Assembly (NCBI GenBank): GCA_038087875.1 | Contig: CM075988.1 | Coordinates: 5,704,001 to 5,768,000 of the forward strand | Reading direction: 5' to 3' | DNA: 64,000 nucleotides | Source of the DNA: Malacoraja senta | Taxonomy: Eukaryota | The notes under the pieces: generated by a model | The model's input: the letters and a program-made list of their open reading frames with translations, nothing else | Databases searched by the model: none | Told to the model about the DNA's origin: nothing | Shown here: positions 1,477 to 50,043 of the stretch, piece by piece | Layout: each line of letters starts with the position of its first letter | How positions within the stretch are numbered: position 1 is the stretch's first letter | Translations under genes and position numbers: made by a program

Positions 1477-3443
1477 TGATTATGAGAAGCCTGGCTTCTA
1501 GTGGCCGCCCATAGCCGGGGTCTACTTCAAGGGGAGGTCGAAGGTGAAGACCAGGGGAGAAGGAAGATGGTGCCACTGTTCCCAACAGAGGCTTCCTGTG
1601 TCCGAGGGAGGAACTTTGGAGAACAAGAAACTCCTCACTTTTTGAAATTGGCAAATAGTGTCAACCATATCAAATGCCATCAGTCTGAAGAAGGGTCCCG
1701 ACCTGAAATGTCACCCATCCTTTATCTCCAGACACACTTTGTGTCTATCTTCATGTTAAATTAGTATCTGCTGTTCCTTCCTAGATGGGTGTCAGAGGTT
1801 ATGGAGAGAAGGCAGGAGAATGGGGTTAGGAGGGAGGGAGAGATAGATCAGCCATGATTGAATGGCGGAGTAGACTTGATGGGCCGAATGGCCTAATTCT
1901 GCTCCTATCACTTATGAACTTCTGATCTTAGACAACATCATATCAATGAATGTTTAAAACTGGAAATAAGCTGTTTTTTATTGATGGTCATGCTGCTACA
2001 GCAGGTTTTGTTCAGTTTAACATTCGTCAGAAGCTGCCGTCTGGTCTTGTCGGTTACTGCCAACTATAAAGCTGTCCGCCCAGCGACAGCACGTAAATCA
2101 CTCGTCGTCAGGGGACCTCGGCAGCTCCCTGGAACCCACCCCTGCTGATGGTTCCCACACGGGCAGCGCACACACAGCTCCTCCGCCAAGCCTGATAAAG
2201 GCCCTCAGTCAGTCGCCTGTCCTGGCGGTCTCAGCCACAAACAGCTGCAGCCCGTGATAACACCCAGGGTAGTAATTCTCCACCTTCGAACCGCTCCACT
2301 GAGCTGTCACCCCCTCACCCAACACTGCCGCCTCCTGCTTCATTTCAAAACCATTTGAAGTCAAGTTTATTCAAGTCAAGTTTATTCGTCACATACACAT
2401 ACGAGATATGCAGTGAAATGAGAATGCCAAGAATTCTCACCCCCCCCCCCCCGATAATTTTCCCACATCCGTCCGTCCCATCCCGGAGAAGAAGACCCCC
2501 GTGGGAGGGGGCTTGATGGATCTCGGCACCGGAGCCCCAGGAGCTTTGAAGGTTGTGTCGGTCGTGCGCAGAGCGATGTTAGCGAGATGTTGGGACCAGC
2601 ATGCTAGTCACAGTCATAGAGTCGTACGGCACGGAAGGTCGGCAGGAACAGGGATAGAATTAGGCCATTCAGCCCATCAAGTCTACTCCACCATTCATTC
2701 AAACATCCTCTCCACACCCACTCTATCCAAGCCTTTCACTATTCTGTATGTTTCAATGAGGTCCCCCCCTCAATCTTCTAAACTCCAGCGAGTACAGGCC
2801 CGGTGCTGACAAACGCTCATCATACGTTAACCTACTCATTCCTGGGATCAATCTTGTAAACCTCCTCTGGACCCTCTCCAGAACCAGCACATCCTTCCTC
2901 AAAAATGGTGCCCAGAATAGCTCACAATATTCTAAATGCTGCCATACCAGCGCCCTATGGAGCCTCAACATCAACAGAAACAGGCCCTTTGGCTCACCTT
3001 GCCCACACCGGCCAACATGCCCCATTTTACACTTGTCCCACCTGCCTGCATTTGGCCCATACCCCTCTAAACCCGCCCTATCCATGTACCTGTCAAAATG
3101 TTTCTTCAAACATTGTGTTACTGCCTGGACTCGTTCCATACATCCTGTGTGATAAATGTACTCTTCAGGTTCCTATTAAATCTTTCCCCCACTCACCTTA
3201 AACCCATGTCCTCTGGTTCTTGATTCCTCTACTCTGGGCAAAAGGCTCTGAGCGTCTTCCCGATCTATTCTGGTTCCTGATTTAATTACTCTGGATAAAA
3301 GATTCGGTGCATCTGCCCTAACCCCCCTTGATTTTGTACCCCTCTACAAGATCAACCTCAGCCTCCTGGGCTCTGAATGAAAAAGTTGCCCCTCGGGTTC
3401 CTATTAAATCTTTCTCCTCTCACCTTAAACCTATATTCCCTGG

Positions 3444-3628
3444 TACACAAAAATGCTGGAGAAACTCAGCGGGTGCAGCAGCATCTATGGAGCGAAGGAA
3501 ATAGGCAACGTTTCGGCCCGAAACGTTGCCTATTTCCTTCGCTCCATAGATGCTGCTGCACCCGCTGAGTTTCTCCAGCGTTTTTGTGTACCTTCGATTT
3601 TCCAGCATCTGCAGTTCCTTCTTTAACA
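3444..3628. mobile_element. Penelope-derived fold-back insertion with 13-bp TSD
   Basis: TSD ctatattccctgg at 3431-3443 and 3629-3641. The palindrome 3442-3592 has 75-bp arms, and the sequence matches the pLTR-like motif next to Penelope ORF remnants elsewhere in the window. Confidence 0.8.
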
Positions 3629-4058
3629 CTATATTCCCTGGTTCTTGATTCCCCTACTCTGGGTAAAAGACTGCCCTATCTATTCCCCACATAAGTCCCT
3701 ATAAGATCACTCTCAACCTCCTGCAGTCCAAGGGATGAAGTCTAGCCTGTCTAACCTCTCCCTGTAGCTCAGGCCCTCGAGTCCTGGCAACATGCTCGTA
3801 AATCTTCTCCGCACCCTTTATAGTTTAACCACGTCATACTGTTTGATGTTCTGCCGGAGGTCTTGAGAGCCTGTGCGTGCTCCTGCTTGACCAATGAGGT
3901 GCACAAAGTCTGCATGGAAATCCCCAGTAGAGTGCAATATCTGAGAGCCCGTCATTTCTCACCCTTACCACAGTCGAGGACAATGAAACAAAGCCTGGTG
4001 TTGACCCACTGCTATACCCAGCCTGTCTGCTCCACAAATCATCTAACATTTCCACAAG

Positions 4059-4876
4059 GCGGCAGGGTGGCGTAGTGGCAAAGCAACTGCCTTGCAGCGC
4101 CAGCGACCCGGGTTCGATCCTGACTACGGGTGCTGTCTGTACGGAGTTAGAGTACATCCTCCCATATAACCATATAACCATAACAGCACGAAAACAGGCC
4201 ATCTCGGCCCTTCAAGTCCGTGCCGAACACTTTTCCCTTTTTTTTTCTTTTTTTTTTAAATTTACTTCCCCCTAGTCCCATCTACCTGCACTCAGACCAT
4301 AACCCTCCATTCCTTTCCCGTCCATATACCCATCCAATCTATTTTTAAAGGATAAAATCGAACCTGCCTCCACCACTTCCACTGGAAGCTCATTCCACAC
4401 AGCTACCACTCTCTGAGTAAAGAAGTTCCCCCTAATGTTACCCCTAAACTTCTGTCCCTTAATTCTCAAGTCATGTCCCCTTGTTTGATTCTTCCCTACT
4501 CTCAATGGGAAAAGCTTATCCATGTCCACTCTGTCTAACCCGCTCATAATTTTAAAGACCTCTATCAAGTCCCCTCTTAACCTTCTGCGCTCCAAAGAAT
4601 AAAGACCTAACTTGTTCAACCTTTCTCTGTAACTTAGTTGCTGAAACCCAGGCAACATTCTAGTAAACCTGTGACCTGTGTGGATTTTCTCTGAGATCTT
4701 CAGTTTTCTCCCACAGTCCAAAGATGTACAGGTTTGTAGGCTAATTGGCTTGGTATAAATGTAAAATTGACCCCAGTGTGTGTAGGATAGTGTTAATATG
4801 TGGGGATCGCTGGTCGGTTTGGACTCAGTAGGCCGTAGGGCCTGTTTCCGCACTGTATCTCTAAACTAAACTAAAA
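4059..4876 (+). mobile_element. V-SINE interrupted by an antisense CR1 3' fragment (about 4148-4668)
   Basis: SINE head at 4059-4147, resuming near 4669. The insert encodes the CR1 ORF2 C-terminus (RFTRMLPG...LYSLERRRLRGDLIEVFK). Confidence 0.8.
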
Positions 4877-7056: not shown

Positions 7057-7716
7057 TAGAAAGTGAATGGTATGTTAGCATTCATAGCAAAGGGATTTGA
7101 GTATAGGAGCAGGGAGGTTCTACTGCAGTTGTACAGGGCCTTGGTGAGACCACACCTGGAGTATTGTGTACAGTTTTGGTCTCCTAATCTGAGGAAAGAT
7201 ATTCTTGCCATAGAGGGAGTACAGAGAAGGTTCACCAGACTGTTTCCTAGGATGGCAGGACTTTCATATGAAGAAAGACTGGATAGACTTGGCTTGTACT
7301 CGCTAGAATTTAGAAGATTGAGGGGGGATCTTATAGAAACTTACAAAATTCTTAAGGGGTTGGACAGGCTAGATGCAGGAAGATTGTTCCCGATGTTGGG
7401 GAAGTCCAGAACAAGGGGTCACAGTTTAAGGATAAGGGGGAAGTCTTTTAGGACCGAGATGAGAAAAACATTTTGCACACAGAGAGTGGTGAATCAGTGG
7501 AATTCTCTGCCACAGAGGTGGTTGAGGCCAGTTCATTGGCTATATTTAAGAGGGTTAGATGTGGCCCTTGTGGCTAAAGGGATCAGGGGGTATGGAGAGA
7601 AGGCAGGTTACAGGATACTGAGTTGGATGATCAGCCATGATCATATTGAATGGCGGTGCAGGCTCGAAGGGCTGAATGGCCTACTCCTGCACCTATTTTC
7701 TATGTTTCTATGTTTC
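7057..7716 (+). mobile_element. Young CR1 LINE 3' fragment
   Basis: LYRALVRPHLEYCVQFWSP...RRLRGDLIETYK; (tatgtttc)n tail. Confidence 0.9.
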
Positions 7717-7789
7717 TAAAGGGCACTTACAAAGCTGTAAGGGGAGTATAGTGGCGGACTGAGAATGCATCTTTGTGGGCTCCGGTGTT

Positions 7790-7932
7790 GAAACATAGAA
7801 ACATAGAAAATAGGTGCAGCAGTAGGCCATTCAGCCCTTCGAGCCTGCACCGCCATTCAATATGATCATGGCTGATCATCCAACTCAGTATCCTGTAACC
7901 TGCCTTCTCTCCATACCCCCTGATCCCTTTAG
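7790..7932 (-). mobile_element. CR1 3' end, inverted near-identical copy of 7574-7716
   Basis: 143-bp inverted repeat with about 1 mismatch. Confidence 0.85.
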
Positions 7933-8634: not shown

Positions 8635-9430
8635 ACCCTCACTGCACCAGCCTCCGCATCCAACACATCATCCTTCATATTTCAAGCAGTCCTTGCTTTA
8701 CCTCCCTCTCCATCCCCTCCCCCTTCCCAGTTCTCCGACCAGTCTTACTGTCTCCGACAACATTTTATCTCTGTACCGCCCACTCCCCTGGCATCAGTCT
8801 AAAGAAGGGTCTCGACCCGAAACGTCACCCATTCCTTCTCTCCAAAAATGCTGCCTGTCCCACTGAGTTACCCCAGCATTTTGAGTCAAACATCATCCTC
8901 CAACACTTCCAACATGATCCCACCACCAGTGACATCTTCCCATCTCCAACCCTTTCTGCCATCCGCAGGGACCATTCTCTCTGCATCTCTTTGGTTCACT
9001 CATCCCTTCCTACTCAAACCACCCCCTCCCCAGGTCCTTTCTCCTGCAACCGCAGGAGATGTGACACCTCCCCTTATACCTCCTCCCTCACTTCCATCCA
9101 AGGACCCCAGCAACCCTTTCAGGTGAGACAGAGGTTCACATGCACCTCCTCTACTGTATCCGGTGTTCCCGATGTGACCTCCTGTACATCAGAGAGACCA
9201 AGCTTACACTCGGAAACCGTTTCACTGAACACTTACTGTCCTCCAAGGCCTACTGGATCTACTGGTTGCTAACCATTTTAACTCCCCTTCCCATTCCCAC
9301 ACTGACCTTTCTGTCCTGGGTCTCCTCCATTGCCAGAGCGAGGCCACTCACAAACTGGAGGAAACAGCACCTCATATTTCACTTAAAACCCAGCGGTATA
9401 AATGTTGAATCCTCTAATTTTGGGTAACTT
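8635..9430 (+). mobile_element. Penelope-like element remnant (GIY-YIG region plus pLTR-like segment)
   Basis: FSCNRRRCDT...QVRQRFTC and YCIRCSRCDLLYIRETK...GNRFTEHL resemble the Penelope CCHH linker and GIY-YIG endonuclease. Confidence 0.8.
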
Positions 9431-10595
9431 CTACAAACACATCCCTCCCCCTCCTTTCCCTCTCCCTCCCCTCTCTCCCTCCCCATCCCCTTTCCTCCAC
9501 TATAAGTCAGCTAACTAGTTGCACAGTTTGCAATGGTGTCTGTAATTCACAGCTGGTTCTGATCCACAACGCGTGTGACCCACAGCTGGCGTGACCCACA
9601 GCTGGCGTGACCCACATCTGTCTCACGCAGGTGTAGCCACGGTTCTCACGCTTCAGTTTTGGTGAAATTGGGCATGGTTTTTATTTTCGGTGTTCGCTCC
9701 CAGGACCGGTACTGGGCGACAGTGCGATGGTGGTTGTCTGTCCCTCACTGCCCCGGCTGCGGAGCTGTCCACACTGTGGTTCTGGACTCTCACACGGGCC
9801 AAACTGGGGCAGGACCCGAGATCTCCTCCCCCGAACAACATCAGCAGCGCAATGTGTTGTAACAATGCTCTAACCCTTCCTCAGTCTGAAGAAGGGTCTC
9901 AACCTGAAACGCCACCTATTCTTTTTCTCCAGAGATGCTGTCTGATTTACTCCAGCTTTTTGTGTCTATCTTCCTGAGACTGGCTTTGTTTGTTAAAATT
10001 CCAGAACTAACGTGCTTATTACAGTAGGCAGAAGGAACTGCAGATGCTGGTTTGCAAAGAAAGACACAAAGTGCTGGAGTAACTCAGCGGGTCAGGCAGC
10101 ATCTCTGGAGAAGGTGAATAGGCAACATTGTGAGTCTGAAGAAGGGTCCCGACCAAATGTCACCTATCCATCTCCTCCAGAGATGCCACCTGGCCCCCTG
10201 AGTTACTCCAGCACTATGTGCATTTCTTTGCTTACCAGAGCAAGATAGAGGCCATTCATGCCATGCGTCTGTCCCAACCCCAGAAGAACAACCCTATCAA
10301 TCCCACTTGCCCCTCTTCTTATTCTCCTGTACCCCAGAAACTTATACTCTCTCACATGCTTTGATATTTTTGCCACCTGCCTAAACTATTTGAAACATAG
10401 GGGGAAACCGGAGCACCCGGAGGAAACCCACATAGTCCCCTCACAGATAGTCCATGGACTCCACACAGACAGCACCGGAGGTCAGAATGGAACCCAGGTC
10501 TCTGAAGCTGTAAGGCAGCAGTTGTATCAGTCCCATTAATTACAATTCCTACTTCTAGGAACGGCCTTGTGGTGCATGGGAGAGTTGCTGCCTTA

Positions 10596-11777: not shown

Positions 11778-12140
11778 TCTGGAGGCGACGGTGGTGATCG
11801 CTGGAACAAAGGGACCAGTAAGAAGAACCAGGGGTTCTTCCCATCCGTGCCTTCAAGATCGGCTGTGGGAGGCGATCCAGGGGCACAAAGGCTGAAGGTG
11901 GCCGGGGAGAGGAGAGGGACGAGGGTTCGGTGGACGATCTGGATGGAGGCGACAGTTACAACTGGCCTTTATGGCCAACTGCAGCTGGGACTTTGAAAAT
12001 GGCGGCAAAACCTGGCGCCTCTTGCATTCTGTAGTTATTTATCTATGGCAATAATTTTACTCAACTGTATGCAGAAAAATAATGTCACTGTAACCTTGGT
12101 ACACGTGGTAATAAAGAACCATTGAGCCATGAGTTGAGAT

Positions 12141-12447
12141 TTTAGTTTAGTTCAGAGATACAGCATGGAAACAGGCCTTCGGGCAACTGAATCCGCGCCG
12201 ACCAGCGATCCCCGCACACTTACACCATCATACACACACAGGGACAATTTACAATTTTACCAAAGCCAATTAATCTACAAACCTGTGCGCCTTCGAAGTG
12301 TGGGAGCAAACCGGAGCTCCTGGAGAAAACCCACGGCAGTACGTACAAACTCCGTACAGACAGCACCCGTAGTCGGGATCGAACCTGCGTCTCTGGCGCT
12401 GTAAGCGCATAAGGCAGTAACTCTGCCACTGTGCCACGGTGCCGCCC
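12141..12447 (-). mobile_element. V-SINE (HE1-like)
   Basis: Full head-to-(ctaaa)n tail copy. Confidence 0.8.
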
Positions 12448-12876
12448 TCAGACATGAGACTCATGTGACTCAGACATCCATGCGGACCTCTTTTGTCCCT
12501 GGATACAGTCTGATTAGTCAGTCGCTCCCAACCTCTGGCTCGGTCACTGCCGGTGATGGGACACCACACACAAGGGCAACTGAGCATCGGGAAGCCGTGG
12601 GAAGATAAGGGTTAAGTGTGCCACTCTAACTGGGCACTCCCATGTGTAGGAAGGAACTGCAGATGCTGGTTTAAACTGAAGATAGACACAAAATGCTGGA
12701 GTCACTCAGTGTGGCCAGGCAGCATCTCTGGAGAAAAGGAATAGATGAAGTTTTAGGTCAAGACCTTTCTTCAGACTTGATCTTCGTTACCTTTTTGCAT
12801 ATATTTCATTCATTTGTCCTTTATCTCTCAACATCACCGTCTATATCTCTCGTTTCCCTTTCCCCTGACTCTCAGT

Positions 12877-12904
12877 CTGAAGAAGGGTCTCGACCCGAAA
12901 CGTC
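12877..12904 (+). ncRNA. Minimal hammerhead-ribozyme-like motif in a Penelope pLTR-like segment (representative copy)
   Basis: CTGAAGA-A-GGGT(CTCG)ACCC-GAAA-CGTC: CUGAnGA box, helix II, GAAA box, palindromic ACGU mini-helix III and GUC site. Confidence 0.6.
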
Positions 12905-15116
12905 ACCCATTCCTTTTCTCCGGAGATGCTGCCTGACCCCCTGAGATACTCCAGCTTTTTGTGTCTACCTCTGGAGAACATGGATAGATGACATTTCTGG
13001 TCGAGGGCCCTTATAACTTAAAATGTAACATCGATGAAAGAGCTAATATGTAGCCAGACAGAACTGCAGATGCTGGTCTACAAAAAAAATACACAAAGTG
13101 CTGGAGTAAGAAGGTGTGCTCAGCTTTTTGTGGGCTCTAGTTCCTATCAGGCCAGAGGACCGTGAGTTAACGTGAGGGCCAGTGTGTGTAATGAATAGGA
13201 GCGGCTGGCAAACCGGCGCTGCATGGCGGATGCTGAAACTCCAGCTGATGTTTTATTGGGCCAGTGTGAAGTGAATGTCTCTGCAATGTGGCTCTTTGCC
13301 AATCAGTTGATTGTAAGTTCAGCTCCAAAAATACAGCCGGGCTGTGATCCCCCTGACCTCCATCAATAAAGAGTTCCCTCAGCCTTTCCCTTGGCAAGCC
13401 AGCAATAACACAGCCCAAATTCTTCCGCCAGCAACCAGCCAGTTTTGTTTTCTTAAGCTCGCACTCTGGGGCTGAGGGAGACCCAGGAAAGAGCCACGCA
13501 TAAGCATGAGCATTGAAGCAGATATGTTCTGTGGCATAAATCTCTGGCCCAGCACTGCGGGGCTTCTGCACTACACGGAGCAAGGGAGGCCCAGGGGGCT
13601 GATCCATCGCACAGTGCAGAGGTCGGCAGTTGTTAACTGTTGCAATCTGCCTCTTCAACCCCGCTCTCTGCCCTCGTCAGTGTATAACTGTGGCTTCACG
13701 TTTCACGGGAGTGTTTTTATAAAATAGCCGGAGTGCCCCAAAGGCCAGGGTTCCCCGACGCTCACTGCAGGCCTCCGCTGCTATCAGTTAACTCGAACAC
13801 GCCTCATTTGCCCCCCTGGTGCTGGTGTGGCTTTAGATGGCAATATTTTCCAGAGTGATGCAGCGTGGTTGCCTGGTCAGCATCCCCTTGCCCACCCTGA
13901 CCTCCCAAGGGTGGTGGGTGTATGGAACGAGCTTCCAGAGGAGGTAGTTGAGGCGTGGACATAGCACCGTTTAAGAAACATTTAGACAGGTACATGGATA
14001 GGACAGGTTTAGAGGGATATGGACCAAACACAGGCAAGTGGGGCTAGTGCAGATGGGACATGTTGGTCGGTGTGGGCAAGTTGGGCCGAAGGGCCTGTTT
14101 CCATGTAGTATGATTTTAAGTATAGACTTGCCGGCTGTTTCATCAAACACACCCTCGGTCTGCCAAGGCCTAGCAGATATCCCGGTTGCTAACCATTTTA
14201 ACTGCCATTCCCATTCCCACACTGACCTTCTGTCCTGGGCCTCCTCCATTACTATATACTGTATTGGTGCCACACACAAAGTGGAGGAACAGCAACTCAT
14301 ATTCCGCTTAGGAAGCTTACAATCCAACGGTATGAACATTGAATTCTCCAATTTTAGCATAGAACTACCCCCACCCCCCCTTATCCAACTCTCTTCCCCA
14401 CACCGCAGCCATTTCCCCCACTATCCCTGTCCCTTCTTCCTGTCCCCTTACACCTAACCTATGTCCTTTCCTCTAGCTTCACATTTCATTCGTTATTTGA
14501 CACCATTTGGCCTTCCTTTTATCTTTAGCCTTTGTCTACCTGCCAATCAAATTCCATCTCACCTATCACTTGCCAGGCCTTGCTCCGCCCCCACCTCGTA
14601 TCCACCTATCACCCCTGCTACATCAATCAGTCTGAAGAAGAGTCCCGACCCCAATTATTATCTGTCCATTCCCTCCACAGATGCTACCTGACCTGTTTAG
14701 TTCCATTAGCACTTTGTGTTTTGCCCAAGATCCCAGCATCTGCTCTTCCTCGTTTCTCTATCTACTTTCATCTGATACAATAGCCCCTAGTTTTTTTAAA
14801 TCTCTTGTCCACTTGTAAATCTATCACTATTTTGCTCATTGCTCTACCTTGACATGGGTACTATAATACTAGTTCAGAGAGATTTGCATGGGTGCATGGA
14901 TAGACATGGTTTAGAGGGATGTGGGCTAAACGCGGGCAGATGGGACTAGCGTAGATGGGGCATCTTGACTGGGATGGGCAAGTTGGGCCGAAGGGCCTTT
15001 TTCCCTGTTGTATGACTCAATCTGTTAAGCTTGTATTTGACTTCATCATATTCTTGTGTAGTATTATCTGATCAGACTGGATATCACACAAACAAAAGTT
15101 TTCACTGTGTCTTGGT

Positions 15117-19120: not shown

Positions 19121-19265
19121 AATATGTGGGTACAGGGGTGCAGGGGGGTCTGGGTAAGAGGGGGGGTGTACACTTGACTTTGGGGAATTCAACTTTCAAA
19201 TCAGTGGGTTGTAAGCTACCCAAATGGAATATGAGGTGCTGTTCATCCACTTTGTCTATGGAACC

Positions 19266-20021
19266 AATGCACTACAATGTGCTACAATGTGCTACAATGT
19301 GCTACAATGTGCTACAACGCGCTACAATGTGCTACAATGCACTACAATGTGCTACAATGTGCTACAATGTGCTACAACGCGCTACAATGTGCTACAACGC
19401 GCTACAATGTGCTACAATGTGCTACAATGTGCTACAATGTGCTACAGTGTTCTACAATGTGCTACAACGCGCTACAATGTGCTACAATGCGCTACAATGT
19501 GCTACAATGTTCTACAACGCGCTACAATGTTCTACAACGCGCTACAATGTGCTACAATGTGCTACAATGCACTACAATGTGCTACAATGTGCTACAATGT
19601 GCTACAGTGTTCTACAATGCGCTACAATGTTCTACAATGTGCTACAATGTGCTACAATGTTCTACAATGTGCTACAACGCGCTACAATGTGCTACAATGC
19701 GCTACAATGTGCTACAATGTTCTACAACGCGCTACAATGTTCTACAACGCGCTACAATGTGCTACAATGTGCTACAATGCACTACAATGTGCTACAATGT
19801 GCTACAATGTGCTACAACGCACTTCAATGTGCTACAATGTGCTACAACGCGCTACAATGTGCTACAACGCACTTCAATGTGCTACAATGTGCTACAATGC
19901 ACTACAATGTGCTACAATGTGCTACAACGCGCTACAATGTGCTACAACGCACTTCAATGTGCTACAATGTGCTACAATGCACTACAATGTGCTACAATGC
20001 GCTACAATGTGCTACAATGCT
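19266..20021. repeat. 10-bp minisatellite (GCTACAATGT)n, about 75 units
   Basis: Strict 10-nt periodicity with variant units. Confidence 0.97.
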
Positions 20022-21375
20022 GAGAACTGTATTCTGCACTACATCTCCTTCTTACACATGTCATCACCAGCATCTGCAGCTCCTTCCTGCATATCTCGTC
20101 CGCTCCACCGAAGAGGTTCTCCTCTCTCTGACGAGAGTTCTGCTACACCCTCTCCTGCTGCAAACCCCCTGTACATACATTTGTTCTATACCTCTCCACA
20201 CCACCGTCTATATCTCTCATTTCCCTTTCCCCTGGCTCTCAGTCTGAAGAAGGGTCTCAACCCGAAACATCACCAATTCCTTTTCTCCAGAGATGCTGCC
20301 TGACCCACTGAGTTACTCCAGCTTTTGGAGTCTATTCTCAGTAGCTTCCCCTTTTGTTCTGCCTGTTGTACACAAGTTTGGCATGATTGTACTTATGTAT
20401 AGTATTATTGATTGGGCAGCATGCAAAACAAAGCTTTTCACTGTACCTCAATGCACGCGGCAATAATAAACCTAGGTAGGTTACAATGACAGGCAGCACC
20501 CTTGTGTAGTGGAGCAGAGAGCCTGTGTTGCAGGTGAGAGTGGGTACAACCCCATCACTCCAGAAGCTCCATCTTCATAGAGTTACACAGCAAGAAGACA
20601 GGCCCTTCAGCCCAGCTCATCCTTACTGCCCCATCTAAGCTAGCCCTGCATTTGGCTTGTAACCCTCCAAACATTTGCTATCCATGGACCTGTCCAAATG
20701 TATTTTAAATAGAGTCAAATGTCATTGAGTCATACAGCACAAACCGCATTGAAACAGGTCCTTCAGCCCAACTCATCCATGCCGACCAGGATGCCACATC
20801 TACACTAGTCCCAATGGCCTGCATTTGGCCCACATCTCTTTCAACTTTTCCTCGCCATGTACCTGTCCAGGTGTCTTTAAACTGTTGTTATAGTACCTGC
20901 CACAACAACCTCGTTCCACACACCCAGCCCCCTCTGACTGCTATTCTTGCTATTATAAATCTTGTTATTAAATTGTTGTTATTCTGAAGCCTAGTTATTG
21001 ACAATGACAGGGCAAGTTTTGGAAATAAAGACTATACCACCCAGGATCGCTGATAAAGAGGCCTTTGATTCAGGAATAGTTTCATTTCATTTCATTTAGT
21101 TGAGTTTAGTTGGTTTGAGTTGAGTTTAGTTTCTTTAGAGGTTCAGCATGGAGTCAGGCCCTTTGGCCCACCTAGTCCAGGCTGACTATCGAACGCCCAT
21201 TCACACTGGCTCTATGTTACCCCACTTTCTCGTCAACTACCCGCACACTAGGGGCGATTTATAGAGGCCAATTAACCAACAAACCCACACGCCTTTGGGA
21301 TGTGGGAGGAAACCGGAGCACCCAGAGAAAACCCACATGGTCACAGGGAGAATATGCAACTCCACACAGACAGCA

Positions 21376-24150: not shown

Positions 24151-24618
24151 ACGCGTGATGTACTCATTTGCTTTTACCTACACAGGTGTGTTTTATCTGT
24201 GGAGGCTCAACAAATTGAAGATACATAGATACATAGATACATAGAAAATAAGTGCAGGAGTAGGCCATTCGGCCCTTCGAGCCTGCACCGCCATTCAATA
24301 TGATCATGGCTGATCATCCCTCAGTATCCCGTACCTGCCTTCTCTCCATACCCCCTGATCCCTTTAGCCACAAGGGCCACATCTAACTCCCTCTTAAATA
24401 TAGCCAATGAACTGGCCTCAACTACCCTCTGTGGCAGAGAGTTCCACAGATTCACCACTCTCTGTGTGAAAACATTTTTCCTCATCTCGGTCCTAAAGGA
24501 TTTCCCCCTTATCCTTAAGCTGTGACCCCTTGTCCTGGACTTCCCCAACATCGGGAACAATCTTCCTGCATCTAGCCTGTCCAACCCCATAAGAATTGTG
24601 TACGTTTCTATAAGATCC

Positions 24619-24712: not shown

Positions 24713-25575
24713 GGTTGGTTGAGTTGGTTGCAGCGACTTGGTTGCAGCGGCCTCTGCAGTCCGTCTGTCTTTTTTATTATTATTATTTTTTTTTGTTTCG
24801 TTTGAGTTTTGTTTTTAGTGTTTTTTTAACGGGGTATGTGTGGGGGGCGGGGGGCGGGGGGTAGGGAGGGGGGAACTTTTAAAATCTTTTCCCTGCACGG
24901 GAGAACCGACCTTTCTCTGTCGGGTCTCCGTTGTCGTTGGGGCCTAGCACCGTGGAGCGGCCTCCAACCGGAACGACCTGGGGCTCCAGTCGCGGAGCCT
25001 GCGGACTTCTCACCATCGTGGAGCTGCCCGACTTCGGAGCGGGAGGGGCTGTGGTGGCGCGCGGCTGCGACCCGACCCCGGAGATTTGGAGGCTTCAGCC
25101 GCGGGACTGGTGGACGGTAACATTGGGAGCCCGCGGGTCCATGATGGGAGACCGCTTTTCGGAGCTCCCGCAACGGCAGCTACTCCCGCCCGAGTTGCGG
25201 GGTTGAAGATGACCTGGAGCGTGGTCTGGCATCGCCCGGTGCGGCATTGGTGGCCGTGAGACTTGCTGGCGCTACCGGAGGCTACAACATCAAGACCCGG
25301 AGCGGGGTCTGGCTTCGCCCGGCGCGGCTTTGGTGGCCGCGGGATATGTTTACAGTCGCCCGCCGGGGGCTTTGACTCTGACATCGGGAGGAGAATGGAG
25401 TGCAGGGGAGAGATAAGACTTTGTCTTCCATCACAGTGAGGAGGAGACTCACTGTGATGGATGTTTGTGTAAATTGTGTTGTGTCTTTTTTAATTGTTTG
25501 TATGACTGCAGAAACAGAATTTCGTTTGAACTTAGGTTCAAACGACAACAAATAAATATCTAAAAATCTAAAAAT
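24713..25575 (+). mobile_element. GC-rich non-coding retroelement (structured family, copy 2) inserted in CR1 ORF2
   Basis: Splits CR1 tcaatctt|ctaaattctagcgag; AATAAA plus (atctaaaa)n tail. Confidence 0.8.
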
Positions 25576-28500
25576 CTAAATTCTAGCGAGTATAAGCCAA
25601 GTCTATCCAGTCTTTCTTCATATGAAAGTCCTGACATCCCAGGAATCAGTCTGGTGAACCTTCTCTGCACTCCCTCTATGGCTATAATGTCCTTCCTCAG
25701 ATTTGGAGACCAAAACTGTACGCAATACTCCAGGTGTGGTCTCACCAAGACCATGTACAACTGCAGTAGAACCTCCCTGCTCCTATACTCAAATTCTTTT
25801 GCTATGAAAGCAAACATACCATTCGCTTTCTTCACTGCCTGCTGCACCTGCATGCCTACTTTCAATGACTGGTGTACCATGACACCCAGGTCTCGCTGCA
25901 TCTCCCCATTTCCTAATCGGCCACCATTTAGATAATAGTCTGCTTTCCTGTTTTTGCCACCAAAGTGGATAACCTCACATTTATCCACATTATACTGCAT
26001 CTGCCAAACATTTGCCCACTCACCCAGCCTATCCAAGTCACCTTGCAGTCTCCTAGCATCCTCCTCACAGCTAACACTGCCCCCCAGCTTAGTGTCATCC
26101 GCAAACTTGGAGATGTTGCCTTCAATTCCCTCATCCAGTTCATTAATATAAATTGTAAATAGCTGGGGTCCCAGCACTGAGCCTTGCGGTACCCCACTAG
26201 TCACTGCCTGCCATTGTGAAAAGGACCCGTTTACTCCTACTCGTTGCTTCCTGTTTGCCAGCCAGTTCTCTATCCACATCAATACTGAACCCCCAATTCC
26301 ATGTGCTTTAAGTTTGTATACTAATCTCTTATGTGGTACCTTGTCGAAAGCCTTCTGAAAGTCCAGATACAACACATCCACTGGTTCTCCCCTATCCACT
26401 CTACTAGTTACATCCTCGAAACATTCTATAAGATTCGTCAGACATGATTTACCTTTCGTAAATCCATGCTGACTTTGTCCAATGATTTCACCACTTTCCA
26501 AATGTGCTGCTATCCCATCTTTAATAAGTGACTAGCAGTTTCCCCACTACCGATGTTAGACTAACTGGTCTGTAATTCCCTGTTTTCTCTCTCCCTCCCT
26601 TCTTAAAAAGTGGGGTTACGTTTGCTACCCTCCAATCCTCAGGAACTACTCCAGAATCTAAAGAGTTTTGAAAAATTATCACTAATGCATCCACTATTTC
26701 TGGAGCTACTTCCTTAAGTACTCTGGGATGCAGCCAATCTGGCCCTGGTGATTTATCGGCCTTTAATCCATTCAATTTACCCAACACCACTTCCCGACTA
26801 ACCTGGATTTCACTCAGTTCCTCCATCTCCTTTGACCCGCGGCCCCCTGCTATTTCCGGCAGATTATTTATGTCTTCCTTAGTGAAGACGGAATCAAAGT
26901 AGTTATTCAATTGGTCCGCCATATCCTTGTTCCCCATGATCAATTCACCTGTTTCTGACTGCTAGGGACCTACATTTGTTTTAACTAATCTCTTTCTCTT
27001 CACATATCTATAAAAACTTTTGCAGTCAGTTTTTATGTTCCCTGCCAGTTTCCTTTCATAATCTATTTTCCCTTTCCTAATTAAGCCCTTTGTCCTCCTC
27101 TGCTGGTCTCTGAATTTCTCCCAGTCCTCTGGTATGCTGCTTTTTCTGGCTAATTTGTACGCATCATCTTTTGCTTTGATACTATCCCTGATTTCCCTTG
27201 TTATCCACGGATGCACTACCTTCCCTGATTTATTCTTTTGCCAAACTGGGATGAACAATTTTTGTAGTTCATCCATGCAGTCTTTAAATGCCTTCCATTG
27301 CATATCCACCGTCAACCCTTTTAGAACTAATTGCCAGTCAATCTTGGCCAATTCACGACTCATACCCTCAAAGTTACCTTTCTTTAAGTTCAGAACCGTT
27401 GTTTCTGAATTAACAATGTCACTCTCCATCCTAATGAAGAACTCAACCATATTATGGTCACTCTTGCCCAAGGGGGCACGCACAACAAGACTGCTAACTA
27501 ACCCTTCCTCATTACTCAATACCCAGTCTAGAATAGCCTGCTCTCTCGTTGGTTCCTCTACATGTTGGTTTAGATAACTATCCCGCATACATTCCAAGAA
27601 ATCCTCTTCCTCAGCACCCCTGCCAATTTGATTCACCCAATCTATATGTAGATTGAAGTCACCCATTATAACTGTTTTGCCTTTGTTGCACGCATTTCTA
27701 ATTTCCTGTTTGATGCCATCCCCAACTTCACTACTACTGCTAGGTGGCCTGTACACAACACCCACCAGTGTTTTCTGCCCCTTAGTGTTTCGTAGCTCTA
27801 CCCATACCGATTCCACATCCTCCAAGCTAATGTCCTTCCTTTCCACTGCGTTAATCTCCTCTCTAACCAGCAACGCTACCCCACCTCCTTTTCCTTTCTC
27901 TCTATCCCTCCTGAATATTGAATATCCCTGGATGTTCAGCTCCCAGCCTTGGTCACCCTGGAGCCATGTCTCCGTGATCCCAACTATATCATAATCATTA
28001 ATTGCTATCTGCACGTTCAACTCATCCACCTTATTACGAATGCTCCTTGCATTGAGACACAAAGTCTTCAGGCTTGTTTTTACAACGCTCTTACCCCTTA
28101 TACAATTATGTTGAAAAGTGGCCCTTTTTGATTTTTGCCCTGGATTTGTCTGCCTGCCACTTTTACTTTTCACCTTGCTACCTATTGCTTCCGCCCGCAT
28201 TTTACACCCCTCTGTTTCTCTGCTCACCCATTTAAGAACCCCACCACCTCTTATTCTCTGTTTATTATTGTTTTCTTCTTTCCCCCCTACATGTTGGGTC
28301 TGAGTGCTTTCCTTCTCTGCCTCCTGCCTCACACACTGTCTAATAGCATTCTCTATTTGAGTCCCTCCCCCCAACCATTCTAGTTTAAAGTCTCCCCAGT
28401 AGCCTTTGCAGATCTCCCCGCCAGGATATCGGTCCCCCTCAGGTTCAAGTGCAACCCATCCTTTTTGTACAGGTCGCACCTTTTACTCAAGACTCCAGAT

Positions 28501-31473: not shown

Positions 31474-32187
31474 ATATTTCAAAACTCTGAACTCTAAATG
31501 TCTTGACTCTAAATGTCTGGGAATAGCACAGCATGGTGGCGCAGCGGTAGAGTTGCTGCCTTACAGCGCCAGAGACCCGGGTTCGATTCTGAATACGGGA
31601 GCTGTCTGTACGGAGTTTGTACGTTCTCCCCGTGGATTTTCTCCAAAGTGGGAGGAGGTGTAGGTTAATTGGTTTGGTAAATGTAAAATGTCCCGAGTGT
31701 AGGGTAGTGTTAGTGTGCGGTGATAGCCAGTTGCGCGGACTCGGTGGACCCGAAGGGCCTGTTTCCGCGTCGTATCTAAACTAAGCTAAAACTAAACTAA
31801 GCCTTGATCACATTGAATGGCGGTGCTGGCTCGAAGGGCCGAATGGTCTACTCCTCCACCTATTGTCTATTGTCCAAAAGCAGGCCCTTCAGCACAACAA
31901 ATCCATGCTGACTTTTATGCCCATTTATATTAAATTCACTTTCCCACATTAGGTCTGTATCTAGGTCTGGATGTCGAGGGAAACTGGAGCACCCGGAGGA
32001 AACCTATCCAGTCACAGAGATGAGAAAGTACAGGAGCCTGAAAACTGTAACGTCCAGGATCAGGAGCAGCTTCTTCCCTACAGCCATTAGCTATTAAACA
32101 CAACAGCCTCATATAAACTCTGAACTACATAGACTATTATTGTTATTGTTGCATTATTATTCTTTCTTTGTTTATTCTGTGCACACA

Positions 32188-32218
<31 letters not shown>

Positions 32219-34526
32219 TTACTCACATATACATACATATAGACAAAATACTGGAGTAACTCAGCGGGACAGGCAGCACCTTCTCTCCAGAGATGCTGCC
32301 TGTCCCGCTGAGTTACTCCAGCATCTTGTGTCTATCTTCGATTTAAACCAGCTTCTGCAGTTCCCTGTCGAGAGAGTTCCCTTCAAACACTCATCCCTGA
32401 TATACATTGCGTTTTAAAAAAAATAAACAAACACAGCCCCAGATATGAAACATCCACAGAGCAAAGCAAACAATTGCCAGTCTGGAGAAGGGACCCAACC
32501 CCATTTTGTGTCTTTTATTTATCAGGTTTATTGAAGGTGAGGGACACACACACTCTGCTACTCTACAGAATAACTGCTCATTGAACAGAGCATGGGTTAA
32601 TCTGTAACCCAAAGCATGGAATCGTGTGTTAATATAAGTGGGGTAATCATGTTTTAATCAGAAAGTGGGATAAAGCAGAGATGAATGATCTATTATGCTT
32701 GTTGCTGAATTCACAGCACTGCCAGCTTCTAAGGTGAACACACTCTACGTTTCGCTAACTTGGGCTCCCACATCCACTGGGCACAGCTGCAGTAAGCTCT
32801 GCGTGTGAATGAAACTGGGTGTTATTGTCGCCCGGTACATATGACAAATCTCTTCAGACTGAAGAAGGGTCTCGACCCGAAACGTCACCCATTCCTTCCA
32901 TCCAGAGATACTGCCTGTACAGCTGAGTTACTCCAGCATTTTGTGTCTATCTTCGGTTTAAACCAGCATCTGCAGTTCCTTCCTACACAATTTATCTCTC
33001 TCTCTTGACCAGTTGTCTCTCAGCCTCTAAGTCCAGATTCACAGTGACAGTGTTAACTCTTAATTTGGCCTCTGCCATGGTCTGGCTAAGCAGCTTCCGT
33101 GCAGGACTGAATGGTGTGGCCCTTGCTACTGATGCCCACATTATGAAATAAAAATATTTAAAGAAATTCCCATATCCTAACAGTCCGCTGGGTGTGACCC
33201 AGGTCCAGTGGCCAGTGATAGCCCCCAGCAGCAGAGTGATGGCCACCGCATAGTGAGAGACCACCGTTTAATGCTCAAGTCACTGGGATGGGCATCCATC
33301 AGCTGCTGTGCAACACGGTGGTGCAGCGGTGGAGTTGCTGCCTTGCAGCGCTTGCAGCACCGGAGACCCTGGTTCGATCGGTGCTGTCTGTACGGAGTTT
33401 GTACGTTCTCCCCATGGTTTGTACGTTCTCCGAGATCTTCGGTTTCCTCCCACACTCCAAAGTGTACAGGTATGTAGGTTAATTACTTTGGGATAAGTGT
33501 AAATTGTCCCTAGTGTGTGTAGGATAGTGTTGGGATCGCTGGTTGGTGTGGGCTCGCTGTATCTCTAAACTAAACTAAGCTCAACACCGCCACCCACTGG
33601 ACATCCTCATGATAACTTTGTACATCTAAAGATACAGCATCTACAGAACGGTTCCAACCCAAAACGTCACCTAAGATAGACGCAAAATAATGGAGTAACT
33701 GGACCAGGCCCAGGCATCATCTGAGAATAGAAGGAATGATTTCAGACTGATCTATCCATGTTCTCCAGAGATGCTCCCTGACCCGCAGCACTTTGTGTAT
33801 TTCTTTGTAAACAAGCATCTGCAGTTCCTGTACAACCATCAGTGGTAAGATTTCAGAATCATAAAATTCTGAGCATCTCACAGATATTGTACCAGCCTTT
33901 AATATCCTCAACGCAAGACAGGACCAGCAGGGCAGCCCCATACATTCGCTCTTACTCATTGGAACTGATGACGCATTTTCACTCTCCCGATCCTAATCCC
34001 TAAATCTTTCCCAATATTAATCCTGATCTTGACGTTAATCCCATCCCAGTCCCAGTCGCAACACTGGTCCGAAAGCAAATTCCAATGAAAAATCTCGCTC
34101 TAATCCCAAACACCCAGCAAAAGCCTTAATTGATCGATTGATTGAAAGTGATTGATTGATTGATTGATTAATCAATTGATTGTTTGATTGATCAATCAAT
34201 TGGTTGGTTGTCGGTTGATTGATCGATCGATTGATTGATGAAAGATACAGCATGTAACACGCCCTTTAAATTGAGAGGGACAAGATTTTATAAGAACATG
34301 ATGGCAAATTTTTCACTCATCAGCCATGATCACAGTGAATGGCGGTGCTGGCTCGAAAGGCTGAATGGCCTACTCCTGCACCTACTGTCTATTGGTGGAT
34401 ATATGGAACAAGCTGCCAGAAGAAGTAGATGAGGCAGGTACCATAACAATACTTAAAAGTCACTTGGACGGGAGTATGGATAGAAAAGGTTCAGAGAGAT
34501 ATGGGCCAGACATGGGCAGGTGGGAC

Positions 34527-35305
34527 TGTTAATATTGACCAAATTAAAGACACCATAAAATGGAGGATCCCTGCATTTGTCAGAATTGCTTATCCTTTGT
34601 CAGTGGAAATTTACAGGTTGTGGATGGCGCCGACCAGTCTGAGCATCAGATTGATATGTAGAGATGAAGGATCCAGGTGTTCTCCTCATTTCCCCTTAAT
34701 CGATAAAATGTATAAAAACTCTGCAAACAAACTTAAATGCATTAATGTGATTGGATTACTGCAAACGAATTGTAAATAGTGTAAATAATGTTGCGAGACA
34801 GTTACCCTGCTGTTTCTTGATTGGACAAAGTGTTAAGCCCTGGCCGGTTTGTTTGAGTTCCAGGGTAAATGTTGCATTGTTCTGTTAAGTTAGCTTCCTT
34901 CCAGAAGCTTCTCCCAGAAACAATGTATGGGAGACTCTGTTATTGGTTTGGGGAACTGTCAATAATGTATTGATGTAATTAATATGTTTGATTGGATTGT
35001 AAAGAGACCACCCCTATGTAATTCAGCCCCTCAAGGTTCGTGGACCTATAAAAGGTGGCTCCATCTTAGATTGAGGTCAATCTTCTGGAAGAGCGCTTGG
35101 GACTGCGTAACCTCTTGGAGTGTTTCTGCTTGCACAAGGCTGAAGGGCTGAAGGGCTTGGCCAGGCAGAGACAAGGATCGAACCTGCGGTGGTTTATGTA
35201 TTGTATAGGGGAATTTGCTGTTCAATCTCAAAATAAAGATTAGTTGTTCCAGTGGTTTTTGACTGAACTAGACTGGGGGGTAAGCTTGAGAAGAGCGTAT
35301 TTACA
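34527..35305 (+). mobile_element. Solo LTR, 779 bp (Gypsy- or ERV-type)
   Basis: TGTTAATA...TATTTACA termini; 4-bp TSD GGAC in a CR1 3' UTR; TATAAAA about 35047; AATAAA about 35232. Confidence 0.85.
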
Positions 35306-37732
35306 GGACTAGCTTCGATGGGGCATCAGTCAGCATGGATAAGTTGGGCTGAAGGGCTTTATGACTCAAGGACTTCTGAAGGAAGGTTTGTTTTACTCGG
35401 AGTCCACTCATAAGCTGTGAAGAAAATTGCAAGGCAGTCTGGAGAAGTAATGACTTGCAGGGCTGTGGTGGTGGTGGGATGGTTGGGATGATGGGACCAC
35501 TCTACTTGGAGCTGGGGTCTACCCAACTGGCTGGAAGGTCTCTTGTGGTGTAATGAATCTCTGATTGAAGGAACAGCACCTCATACTCCACTTGGCAGCT
35601 TGCACCCCAGTGGTATAAATATTGACATCTCTAACTTCAAGTAACCCTTGCTTTCCCTCTCTCTCCATCCCTCCTCTTCCTAGTTCTCCGACCAATCTGA
35701 CTGTCCCTTTGATTATGCTTTGATGTCACCTTCTCCAGCTAACAATGATCTATTCTACATTTTCCTAGTTCACCATACACTTTGATGTCTCGTTTTCACA
35801 CCTTACACTTCCTTATCTCTGTGTCTCCCACTCGCCTGACTCTGAAGAAGGGTCTTGATCCGAAACGTCACCCATTCCTTCTATCCAGAGATGCTGCCTG
35901 TCCCACTGAGTTACTCCAGCGTTGTGTGTCTCCCTGATTCATGGTATCCTTGCCAATTCCATCAACAGTCACACACAGAGGCTGCAATGTGCACCAACTA
36001 CAAAATGCACTGTGGTTACCCATCCGGTAGCCCCCAATCCCTCCACCACCACCTGCAGCCTCTCTAACGTAGAAATAGAACATCGAGCAGTACAGCACAG
36101 AAGCAGCCCCTTCGGCCCGCAATGTCTATGCCAAACATTATGCAAGTTTTAAAAAACTATATCTTTCCATTCTCTGCATATCCATGTGCCTATCTAAATG
36201 TTTCATAAGCTACTATCATATCTGCTTCAACACCAGTCTGGCAGCATGTTCCAGGCTCCCTGCACATCTCCTTTAAACGTAGCGCTTCTCACCTTAAAGC
36301 TATGCCCTTTAATTTGTTTAGTTTAGTTTAGTTTGGAGATACAATGGGGAAGCAGGCCCTTTGGCCCACTGAGTCTGCACCGACCAGCAATCCCTGCACA
36401 TTAACACTACCCTAAACACACTAGGGACAATTTTACATTTATAACCAAGCCAATTAATCCACAAAGCTGTACATCCTTGGTGTGTGTCACGGGGAGAACG
36501 TACAAACTCCACACAGACAGCACCCGTAGTTGGGATGGAACCCGGGTCTCTGGCATTGTAAGGCAGTAACTCTACTGCTAGGCCACCGTGCTGCCCTTAT
36601 CTTTGATATTTCCTCCCTGGGATAAAGGTACTGACTGTCTATCCTAACTATGCGTCTCATAATTTTACCAACTTCTATCAGGTCTCCCCACAACCTCTGC
36701 CATTCTAGCGAAAACAATCCAAGTTTGTCCCTCTCCTTATAGCTAAAACCCTCTAATCCAGGCAGCATTCTGGTAAACCTCTTCTGCACCCTCTCCAAAG
36801 CTTCCACATCCTTCCTGTAATGGGGCGACCAGAACTTCACACAATACTCTACACGCGGCCTAACCAATGTCCGATAAAGCTGCAACATGACTTCCTGACT
36901 CTTGTATTCAATGCCCCGACCGATGAACAGTAAGCAAACTGTTTACCCTTATTTACTACTTGTGCTCCCACTTTCAGGGAGCTATGGACTTGGACCACAA
37001 ATGGTTTTGGAAATGTATTGATGTTCATTACCCATTTCTGGGTGTAAATCCTGAAATTCTATCCCCTTTCCCCTCCCCCCCATCTCCCTCTCCTCCCACA
37101 GCATGGGAGTTCCCTCACCAGGGCTACAACTGTTCAAGAAGGGAGCTCTCCAGCTCTTGTTTGATTGAAAGACACAGCACGGAAACAGGCCCTTCGCCCC
37201 CCCCCCACAAAGTCCACACTGACCAGCGATCACCCATTCACACCAGTTCTATGTTATCCCACTTTCTCATCCACTCCCTACACACTCAGGATGATTTACA
37301 GAGAGCCAATTAAATTACAAACCCACACGTCATTGGGATGTGGGGTGAAACCGGAACGCCCGGAGAAAACCCACGTGGCCACAGGGGGAATGCGCAAACA
37401 CAGACACGCAGACAACACCTGAGGTCAGGATTGAACCCGGGTCTCTGATGCTGTGGGGCAGCTGTTCTACCTGCTGCTCCACTGCGCTGTCCTTGGGGAT
37501 GCACAGTACATGCTGACCCAGCTGAGAAGATCTCGATCCCAAGCTTTAAATGCTGAGTCTGATGCCCTCATGGAGGGGGGGTTTCAAGGAGGCGAGGAAA
37601 TCTGCTTGCACGGAATTCATTACCAATGATGCATTGACGATGCTTCCAATGAGCTCCAATGCTGATGTTCTCCCATCGCCCCACATGAGGTTCTACCATG
37701 CAGTCAGACTTGCTCAGGTTCAATGAACCAGA

Positions 37733-38033
37733 GGGCGGCACGGTGGCGCAGCGGTAGTGTTGCTACCTTACAGCGCTTGTAGCGCTGGAGACCCGGGTTC
37801 GATCCCAACTACAGGTGCTCTCTGTACGGAGTTTGCATGTTTTCCCCGTGACCGCGTGGGTTTTTTCCGAGATCTTCGGTTTCCTCCAACACTCCAAAGG
37901 TTAATTGGCTTGGTATGATTGTAAGTTGTCCCTGGTGTGTGTAGGACTGGTGTGCAGGGATCACTGGTCGGTACGGACTTGATGGGCCAAAGGGCCTGTT
38001 AACGAGCTGTATCTCTAAACTAAACTAAACTAA
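37733..38033 (+). mobile_element. V-SINE (HE1-like)
   Basis: A box tggcgcagcgg, B box ggttcgatccc, core and (ctaaa)n tail. Confidence 0.85.
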
Positions 38034-39137
38034 GATACCAGGTTGCTATTGGGTTCCAGAACAACTATCACTCTCACTGGATTTAATCCCAGCCTACTCC
38101 CAAACTATCCAGCAGTTAAACTGCCCATTCTAGTTTCCACAATGACCATTACGTCCAGTGGGAAGAGGGACATTTTCATCAGTTTCCCCTCAGCCTGTTT
38201 TCAACCCAAGGTGATCTTGATACATTTAGTTTAGGGATACAGCATAGGAACAGACCCTTTGGCCCATCGAGTCCATACTGACCATTGATCACCCGTTCAC
38301 ACTTGTTCTATGTTGTCTGATTTATCATCCACTCCCTAGATACCAGGAACAATTCATGCAGAGGCCAATGAACCTTTAAACCCACACGCCTTTGGGATGT
38401 GGGAGGAATCCGGAGCACCTGGAGGAAACCAGCGTGGTCACCTGGAGACCGTGCAAACTCCACACACACAGCACCTGAGGTCAGAATCAAACGTGGGTCT
38501 GCAATGCTCTGATTCTATTTGAGATGGCAATAGTTCTAAGATCCCGTAACAATGAGAAAAACATGCATCCACCTTGAAGAAATCCATTAATCTTAGACAA
38601 AAGCATGGACAGGAGTCTATTCATGACCGTCGGCATTGCATTAGTAAAAAAAAGAATTTTAACTTCGGAATTAAAACTTCATTTATTATAGATTACATTC
38701 TCAAAAATAATCTGATATCTCAATTTTTAATTCAAGTAATGAAGATTAAAAAAAAATAACATTTGACTTTAAAAATACTCTAATTTTATTGCAGCACTAA
38801 CCTGACAACACAGCAGTTTTGAAAGAGCCTCTATCAGTCATTTCCTTCAGCCATTTGGAATGTGGACGTGGTTGTAAGCTGGACACAAATGCTGGAGCAA
38901 CTCTGCGGGACAGGCAGCATCTCTGGAGAGAGGTGCTGTTTGTCCCACTGAGTTACTCCAGCGTTTTGTGTCGACCTTCTTCGATTTAAACCAGCATCTG
39001 CAGTTCTTTCCTACACTTATTGTGAGCTGGTCTCACTTGGGGAAGTCACACTAAACCTGTCCAGTAGGGGGAGCTCCCTGGATGGGCAATGTTAGCAAGA
39101 CGAGGGGCAACGCAGCAGCGATCTTCTCACACCCAGA

Positions 39138-39448
39138 GTTTAGTTTAGTTTAGAGATACAGCAGGGAAACAGGCCCTTCGGCCCACCGATTCCGCATCGA
39201 CCAGCGATCCCCACACATTAACACTACCCTACACACACTAGGGACAAGTTTACGATTTTACCGAAGCCAATTAACCTACAAACCTGTATGTCTTTGGAGT
39301 GTGGGAGGAAACAGAAGATCTCGGAGGAAACCCACGCGGTCCCGGGGAGAATGTACAAACTCCGGACAGACAGCACCCGTAGTCGGGATCGAACCCGGGT
39401 CTCCAGCGCTGTAAGGCAGCAACTCTACCGCTGCGCTACTGTGCCACC
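39138..39448 (-). mobile_element. V-SINE (HE1-like)
   Basis: Full copy. Confidence 0.8.
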
Positions 39449-39715
39449 CAAAGAGCTACAGGGGAGGGACGGGGCTGGAGTGGGGCACCGGGGCTGAGTC
39501 CGCAGATGGTCACCGCAAATCGGAGCACGGAGAATGAGGACAGGCATGACAGGCAGCAGCCAGGGAGGGTACCAGACCTTGATGTGGGGAGGTTCACTGA
39601 ATGATCACACTGTTCCCTTAAACACCAGTGCAGCATGGCCGACAAAAGGATTGGTGGTAGATCACGCTTGGCAATGAAATGCTGCAGTCTGGCTGCAGCT
39701 AACCTTCCCAGCGTC

Positions 39716-47349: not shown

Positions 47350-47571
47350 TACCTGCGATTGTTCCAGCATCTGCAGTTCCTTCTTAAACACTCCCAGGGT
47401 CTTTCCTCATTTGAGACTGGAGGATTGGTGCTAGTCCACCACGCCACACCTGCTGTTTTGATTGAATTGATTGATAGGTTCAGCGTGGAAACAAGCCCGT
47501 TGGCCCACCGAGTCCACGCTGCCCATCTTCCACTAGTTCTATGTTATCCCACTTTCTCATCCACTCTCCAC

Positions 47572-50020: not shown

Positions 50021-50043
50021 GACGTGGGGAGATATCCGTTAAT

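Follow-up and report, generated by a model that had tools for sequence, protein, structure and literature searches.

The window analyzed is a stretch of 64,000 nucleotides of Malacoraja senta DNA (GCA_038087875.1, contig CM075988.1, positions 5,704,001 to 5,768,000 of the forward strand). An intact ORF on the minus strand (48911-50038) encodes an inward-rectifier potassium channel of 374 aa (Pfam), with Kir4.1 as its best solved relative. Also present are a large LINE remnant in which Pfam identifies AP-endonuclease and RT domains (25560-28482, minus strand), LINE 3′ fragments at ~4272-4865, 7060-7719, 24226-24618 and 47537-48066, and an abundant ~300-bp repeat of SINE-like size in both orientations (463-779, 1168-1477, 12129-12448, 39135-39449 and ~20 more), in which ARAGORN detected no tRNA gene. 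A 360-bp near-perfect palindrome (88%) at 7574-7932 is unrelated to the hammerhead element described below; a minisatellite with a 10-bp unit spans 755 bp at 19265-20019, and long CA microsatellites lie at 16988, 21376 and 22846. The block 33476-40276 is repeated directly at 40477-47349 (6.9 kb, 95.3% identity, 164 mismatches, 24 gap openings), with a 200-N gap between the two copies, and is either a haplotype that was not collapsed or a segmental duplication of recent origin. Because of this duplication, the motif copies at 35842/42841, 40189/47262 and 33641/40638 were each counted once.

The feature under study, at 12877-12904 on the plus strand, has the sequence of a minimal type I hammerhead core, with the architecture given in the consulted parts of Cervera and de la Pena, 2014 (PMC4209133). 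Positions were numbered from the predicted cleavage nucleotide, C17 = 0 (window 12904), so that C3 is -27. C3-A9 occupy 12877-12883 and are followed by an extra A (12884), a 4-bp helix II (12885-12888/12893-12896), G12-A15.1 (12897-12900), a palindromic C-G (12901-12902), U16.1 (12903) and C17, after which the cut is predicted. The preceding TCAGT (12872-12876) provides the 5′ strand of a 2-bp helix I, pairing with 12905-12906; it forms a short inverted repeat with CTGA, and the 5′ limit of short copies falls mainly here (-30 to -28). Upstream lies a pyrimidine-rich 3′UTR remnant (12807-12871, plus strand) common to 20174-20240, and downstream the pLTR body of the plus-strand arm (12905-12970, or to 12974 by the pair limits), which ends at ~+65 and has no tail. 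Together with 12643-12778 (minus), the segment 12872-12974 (plus) forms an inverted pair, in which the motif lies on the right arm; the minus-strand arm runs from -30 to ~+101, has a tail and carries a mutated core at 12747-12774.

Allowing up to 3 mismatches, the hammerhead motif was matched 14 times in the window, with 0.00 expected from 100 shuffles, and the recurrence reported in the initial annotation is therefore real. At up to 9 mismatches there were 28 matches (20 plus, 8 minus) against 0.13 expected. That annotation had listed copies on the plus strand only; the 8 of 28 on the minus strand, many of them members of inverted pairs, reveal an architecture that it missed. Exact copies at 12877, 32859 and 47262 and G-U pairs in helix II at 35842 and 42841 were found as it described. 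Of the copies that it listed as mutated, those at 8798 and 9885 should read 8799 and 9886, and the one at 51122 retains both boxes and a full helix II. A profile search (-33 to +104) gave 47 pieces, or 40 once the 7 in the duplicate block were removed, a higher density than the proposed one copy per ~4 kb. Rfam returned no hammerhead family for the window even at E ≤ 10. Its hairpin and miRNA matches were rejected as artefacts of inverted pairs, and a Plastid-psbJ-2 match above the gathering score (32163-32323) as a false positive on a pLTR hairpin. Viral contigs searched for the motif gave 0 matches.

In the longest copies the order is GIY-YIG remnant, pyrimidine-rich 3′UTR, core and ~100 nt. 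As annotated, a GIY-YIG remnant lies upstream of the motif at 39713-40083, and there are four further independent ones, the five independent endonuclease remnants being at 8886-9421, 14128-14355, 35537-35638, 46785-47152 and 50450-50765. The longest 3′ end (46785-47390, plus strand) comprises the GIY-YIG remnant at 46785-47152, 3′UTR, an intact core (47262-47289), body and tail, and its duplicate is at 39713-40276. Endonuclease C-terminus, 3′UTR and core 35842 occur in that order at 35537-35934 (plus; duplicate 42536-42933). Older subfamilies are represented by 14128-14751 (plus), with an endonuclease C-terminus, a longer 3′UTR and a mutated core at 14632, and by 50450-51238 (plus), with an endonuclease remnant, 3′UTR and core 51122, its boxes intact. 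At 8679-9427 (plus) is a partial tandem, in which 3′UTR and a motif with mutated G5 (8799-8826) are fused at ~+60 to a broken thumb-linker-GIY-YIG remnant (8886-9421, plus) with a decayed CX4CxxC. A short copy at 32854-32989 (plus; -32 to +103) starts with a 7-nt inverted stub and has the exact core 32859, with no helix I. Inside the element's own GIY-YIG region, an inverted pLTR tail-end fragment was observed at 46879-46975 (and 39807-39903) with an 11-bp TSD; 86 bases of this insertion were skipped by contigs of four runs.

Two Leucoraja erinacea proteins share 79% (P0001) and 73% identity with remnant 46997-47155, which sets the host among skate-like fishes. The skate remnant P0002 retrieved shark and unnamed proteins with RT plus GIY-YIG, the latter below the Pfam cut-off both in the homologues and in the window remnant (E 0.08); compared with the window in turn, these proteins match the five independent remnants. 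P0001, P0002 and P0003 are annotated skate or shark chimeras that end in PLE endonuclease or 3′UTR translation, and are probably gene-model artefacts. A first protein search with 8886-9152 gave no match; this remnant is 53% identical to P0004, and the last Cys of its decayed CX4CxxC linker is changed. The CX2-5CxxC linker is complete in P0002, P0004 and L005, and a PLE-type RT occupies the same ORF in the homologues P0004, P0007, P0008 and L005; no RT remnant or full-length element was found in the window. The consulted parts of Craig et al., 2021 (PMC8557442) give this linker as a hallmark of Neptune and Nematis that Penelope/Poseidon lack. The CX4CxxC linker therefore indicates a Neptune/Nematis-like element in place of the Penelope clade named in the initial annotation.

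The window copies conform to the PLE-type minimal type I hammerhead, as first proposed: an extra nucleotide follows A9, helix III is palindromic, and the motif lies 3′ of a GIY-YIG remnant. Of 18 copies, 17 have the extra A; helix II has 4 bp and G10.1-C11.1 as its closing pair, and positions 15.2-16.2 are C-G in most copies, with an ACGU duplex of -1.7 kcal/mol only. The CUGAnGA and GAAA boxes with U16.1-H17 are kept in the 12877 copy and in 10 of 22 aligned arms. The complete set of boxes, UH, helix II and palindrome is kept in 5 of 18 copies (12877, 32859, 35842, 47262 and 51122). Weakness of helix I had been noted from the outset as 2-3 bp, and it is greater than that (0-2 bp): among 18 ungapped copies it has 2 bp in 11, 1 bp in 2 and none in 5. 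Both pairs are kept in 3 of the 5 copies with intact cores, while 32859 has no pair and 35842 one.

Distant homologues were sought with a pattern in which helix I was left free, the fixed elements being the boxes, three pairs of helix II and the letters of helix III. It matched 123 stretches in 10 of 64 parts of metagenome contigs, 122 of which were analyzed further, and none of these loci resembles the window element at the DNA level. Among 67 distinct homologous motifs, helix I pairs 1-4 were paired in 88/90/84/60%, compared with 75/50/44/38% after shuffling (tests that ignore relatedness, so that p-values are optimistic); several pair types were used, and pairs 5 and 6 did not exceed chance. 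Helix I is mostly 3-6 bp in distant homologues and at most 2 bp in all 18 window copies. The same endonuclease C-terminus was found 73-574 nt upstream in 25 of 127 metagenome motifs, of which only 59 had an upstream stretch longer than 400 nt. The covarying helix I and the upstream endonuclease indicate that the hammerhead class is genuine; judged by its sequence, the window family is a weak version of it. One of these loci (L005, 1005-3663) is a 5′-truncated PLE that contains RT, GIY-YIG and the CX4CxxC linker; inverted pLTRs lie on either side of it, and both carry a hammerhead with a 4-bp helix I.

Fold prediction gave -3.9 kcal/mol for the hammerhead-like fold of the 12877 copy and -8.3 kcal/mol for a rival hairpin, in which the 5′ strand of helix II would pair with +1 to +4. 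A dimer of this copy is predicted to pair via TCAGTCTGA and not via helix III. The predicted probability of the helix II closing pair was 0.14 at 12877, as against a median of 0.78 in 66 homologues, in which helix I was also rarely predicted (median 0.004).

Decay was evident at CpG sites (29 of 130), G12 among them: 5 of 21 arms have a substitution there, as does 13-16% of the depth of public contigs. The contig variant listing comprised two CpGs and +1 only and omitted the third CpG; it was treated as biased and not taken as a sign of selection. In a strict alignment of 22 arms, which favors arms with intact 5′ boxes, non-CpG box positions differed at 8 of 201 sites and downstream positions at 145 of 1104; with base matching, 8 non-CpG box differences were observed versus 17-24 expected. 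Conservation of the boxes relative to flanks, a point raised in the initial annotation, thus held in the strict alignment and not in a looser one (15.4% versus 14.8%), which ran into non-homologous DNA in core-less arms, so that its null result is contaminated. The boxes are retained across older subfamilies. A zebra-shark protein reads through the motif (LMKGLRPKR, compared with LKKGLDPKR in the window) and continues into unrelated residues; if the translation is a guide, both boxes would persist in sharks. Low box variation in these sequences may leave some room for function, and we read the box pattern as the outcome of selection acting on master lineages while their copies decay neutrally.

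Ten non-redundant head-to-head pairs were identified in the window, two duplicates having been dropped. TSDs of 11-15 bp at a null P ≤ 0.02 surround five of them: 3442-3627, which is folded at ~-11 (14-bp TSD, 3431-3444 and 3629-3642); 61731-61934, centered on -28 at 61802 (TSD 61717-61731 and 61933-61947); 63652-63874, centered on -28 at 63775 (11 bp); 60353-60548 (15 bp, imperfect); and 38876-39016, without a core (11 bp, imperfect; duplicate 45896-46036). One pair is borderline (54405-54616, 7 bp). The other four have no clear TSD, namely the older pairs 10031-10233 and 33669-33830 (duplicate 40666-40827), the core-less pair 32238-32365 and the pair that contains the motif under study (12643-12974). 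Solo copies had a TSD score of at least 10 in 2 of 11 cases. In all 10 pairs one arm ends at +94 to +103, with the tail, and the other at +43 to +75, without it; independent 50:50 ends would give this result with a probability of ~0.001. The same asymmetry was seen in 3 of 3 informative independent distant pairs (L043, L036 and L098), leaving out L109, which repeats L036, and L005, which is uninformative. The PLE tail is 30-40 nt long. The consulted parts of PMC8557442 describe inverted 5′-truncated arms whose 30-40 bp tail is often confined to one of the two ends. In those of Frangieh et al., 2024 (PMC11167929), the tail is set by two RT start sites within the element, both strands are cut and extended, uncleaved RNA is the substrate, ribozyme cleavage requires protein, and cleavage is dispensable for insertion in vitro. 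One tailed and one tail-less arm per pair fits these two RT start sites.

Public contigs extended these observations beyond the window. Contigs of run X1 that align to 46700-47450 numbered 171,504 (88% of the run read), and their summed depth, which is not a copy number, peaks over the motif. Among the loose 5′ ends listed, those at -33/-32 have a pyrimidine-rich consensus (other 3′UTRs), and those at -30 to -28 have heterogeneous flanks (559+523 in X1, 163+167+99 in X18, 106+81 in X20); none of those listed lies at +1, a weak negative given that the listings are incomplete. Window copies likewise contain the uncut cleavage site, spanning C17. Copies that span the cut site, together with no listed ends at +1, point to derivation mainly from uncut RNA. 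The joints listed include none that would mark splicing from the stop-codon region to -28. From its sequence, TCAGT at 12872-12876 is a candidate initiator or 3′ splice site: we take TCAGTC to resemble an initiator, and the pyrimidine tract with CAG to resemble a 3′ splice site. Alternatively, the TCAG/CTGA inverted repeat could simply favor fold-back joining. For D. virilis, the consulted parts of two papers place an intron end at helix I (PMC4209133) and the Penelope promoter inside the pLTR (PMC2377424).

Very probably, then, the motif lies in the terminal pLTR of an abundant EN+ PLE, and the window copies are truncated or head-to-head insertion products, likely made from uncleaved RNA and likely inactive as ribozymes. 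In the mechanism that we propose, the RT-endonuclease would nick both target strands 11-15 bp apart, and one cDNA would be primed at each of the two internal start sites, on either side of the tail, the two being primed on opposite target strands. Reverse transcription would copy through the uncut ribozyme and would usually stop early, often at -30 to -28, after which the two cDNAs may be joined head-to-head, often at short natural palindromes. With arms on opposite strands, RNA from a pair would form a long hairpin and no cleaving dimer in cis. The ribozyme would be under selection in master elements only, where it would need a dimer partner and probably also the protein of the element. A bolder extension holds that the pairs record coupled two-primer integration with the start sites always on opposite strands, that both cDNAs can run off where the RNA has a constant 5′ end (-30 to -28), which an initiator or a 3′ splice site (pyrimidine tract plus CAG) would determine, that this end also sets the 5′ strand of helix I, so that transcription start or splicing switches the ribozyme on or off, and that run-off products became a major skate repeat class; in this full form we consider it rather unlikely.

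Other explanations bear on parts of this account. It is possible, although we lean against it, that the hammerhead of the skate lineage is a dead relic that does not cleave even in master elements, its motif being kept for a promoter, splice-acceptor or protein-binding role; such a relic would concern master elements only and is compatible with the explanation preferred here. It would account for a helix I of at most 2 bp in all 18 copies where distant homologues mostly have 3-6 bp, for the loss of the 12877 hammerhead fold to the rival hairpin and a predicted dimer that avoids helix III, and for the substitutions at G12 (5 of 21 arms; 13-16% of contig depth). However, helix I is also 2 bp in D. 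virilis Penelope (consulted parts of PMC4209133), the anole PLE ribozyme cleaves only with protein (those of PMC11167929), and the boxes are kept across older subfamilies and, as the zebra-shark read-through implies, in sharks.

The initial annotation suggested that the copies may be a ribozyme-bearing non-autonomous family; a distinct family of this kind is not supported. In its strongest version, a SINE- or retrozyme-like family of ~90-130 nt from -30 would propagate itself, being transcribed from its own copies and processed by the ribozyme, which we regard as improbable. Such a family retains what weight it has because of the -30 boundary: many contigs start at -30 to -28 with unrelated flanks, and so sharp a boundary fits a defined short unit. 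The very high abundance (171,504 aligned X1 contigs) is in keeping with it, and retrozymes, which have pLTRs as their source, are present in a chondrichthyan, according to the consulted parts of 10.64898/2026.07.22.740005. Yet 5′ ends, though enriched at -30 to -28, range widely, from the endonuclease ORF to ~+20; short and 3′UTR-bearing arms share one body and adjoin as the inverted pair 12643-12970; and the copies contain an uncut site. Among the 41 TRF rows for the window there was no tandem array of at least 2 units with intact hammerheads, the pairs being on opposite strands, and neither ARAGORN nor Rfam detected a tRNA or other RNA-gene-derived head in the window. Co-option of some copies as active ribozymes regulating the transcript of the neighboring Kir channel is highly improbable. 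Intact cores do flank the ORF, at 47262 and 51122, but all five are on the plus strand, antisense to the minus-strand ORF, none of five scored minus-strand copies is intact, no same-strand partner lies nearby, and copy density reflects a genome-wide repeat. Nothing found links the hammerhead copies to the Kir gene.

A PLE family this large in skate-like fishes would permit a genome-wide test of two-start-site use and inverted-end formation, steps of PLE integration that are still unvalidated in vivo. It could also reveal if a helix I of 2 bp still allows cleavage by a vertebrate PLE hammerhead. The value of the family lies in its copy number; seen as a ribozyme, the motif is nothing unusual, for the consulted parts of PMC4209133 report it by the thousands per genome in fishes, coelacanth and frogs. 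Two searched supplementary files of that paper contain no shark or skate terms, and no account of this family turned up in the literature searched, which took in few subscription papers and did not extend to Repbase.

Comparison with known systems was made with the consulted parts of each source. With the metazoan PLE pLTR hammerheads of PMC4209133 the window family shares both boxes, the extra nucleotide between A9 and G10.1, the G10.1-C11.1 pair and the palindromic 15.2-16.2, together with the pLTR position, mostly solitary truncated copies and close pairs of motifs on opposite strands. The Schistosoma families have a longer helix II (7-8 bp, against 4 bp here) and a longer helix I (4-5 bp, against 2 bp both here and in D. 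virilis). Non-LTR retrozymes (10.64898/2026.07.22.740005) are similarly non-coding and pLTR-derived with a type I hammerhead, but form tandem arrays of at least 2 consecutive intact ribozymes, and no such array occurs here. Neptune/Nematis PLEs (PMC8557442) resemble the window family in 5′ truncation, an inverted arm, an optional 30-40 bp tail and variable TSDs; only the 3′ end is present here, so that the two clades are not separable, and most insertions consist of the pLTR end alone. Poseidon PAc of Anolis carolinensis (PMC11167929) likewise has two 3′ ends a tail apart and uses both strands, and its genomic copies span the cut site with no sign of ends there. It differs in clade, being a Poseidon element without the linker, and its ORF starts at stem II, whereas stem II in the window has no ATG; its mechanism was demonstrated in vitro, whereas here it is proposed from DNA sequence. 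The hammerhead-bearing kind of PLE is already known, and the window family is a further example of it.
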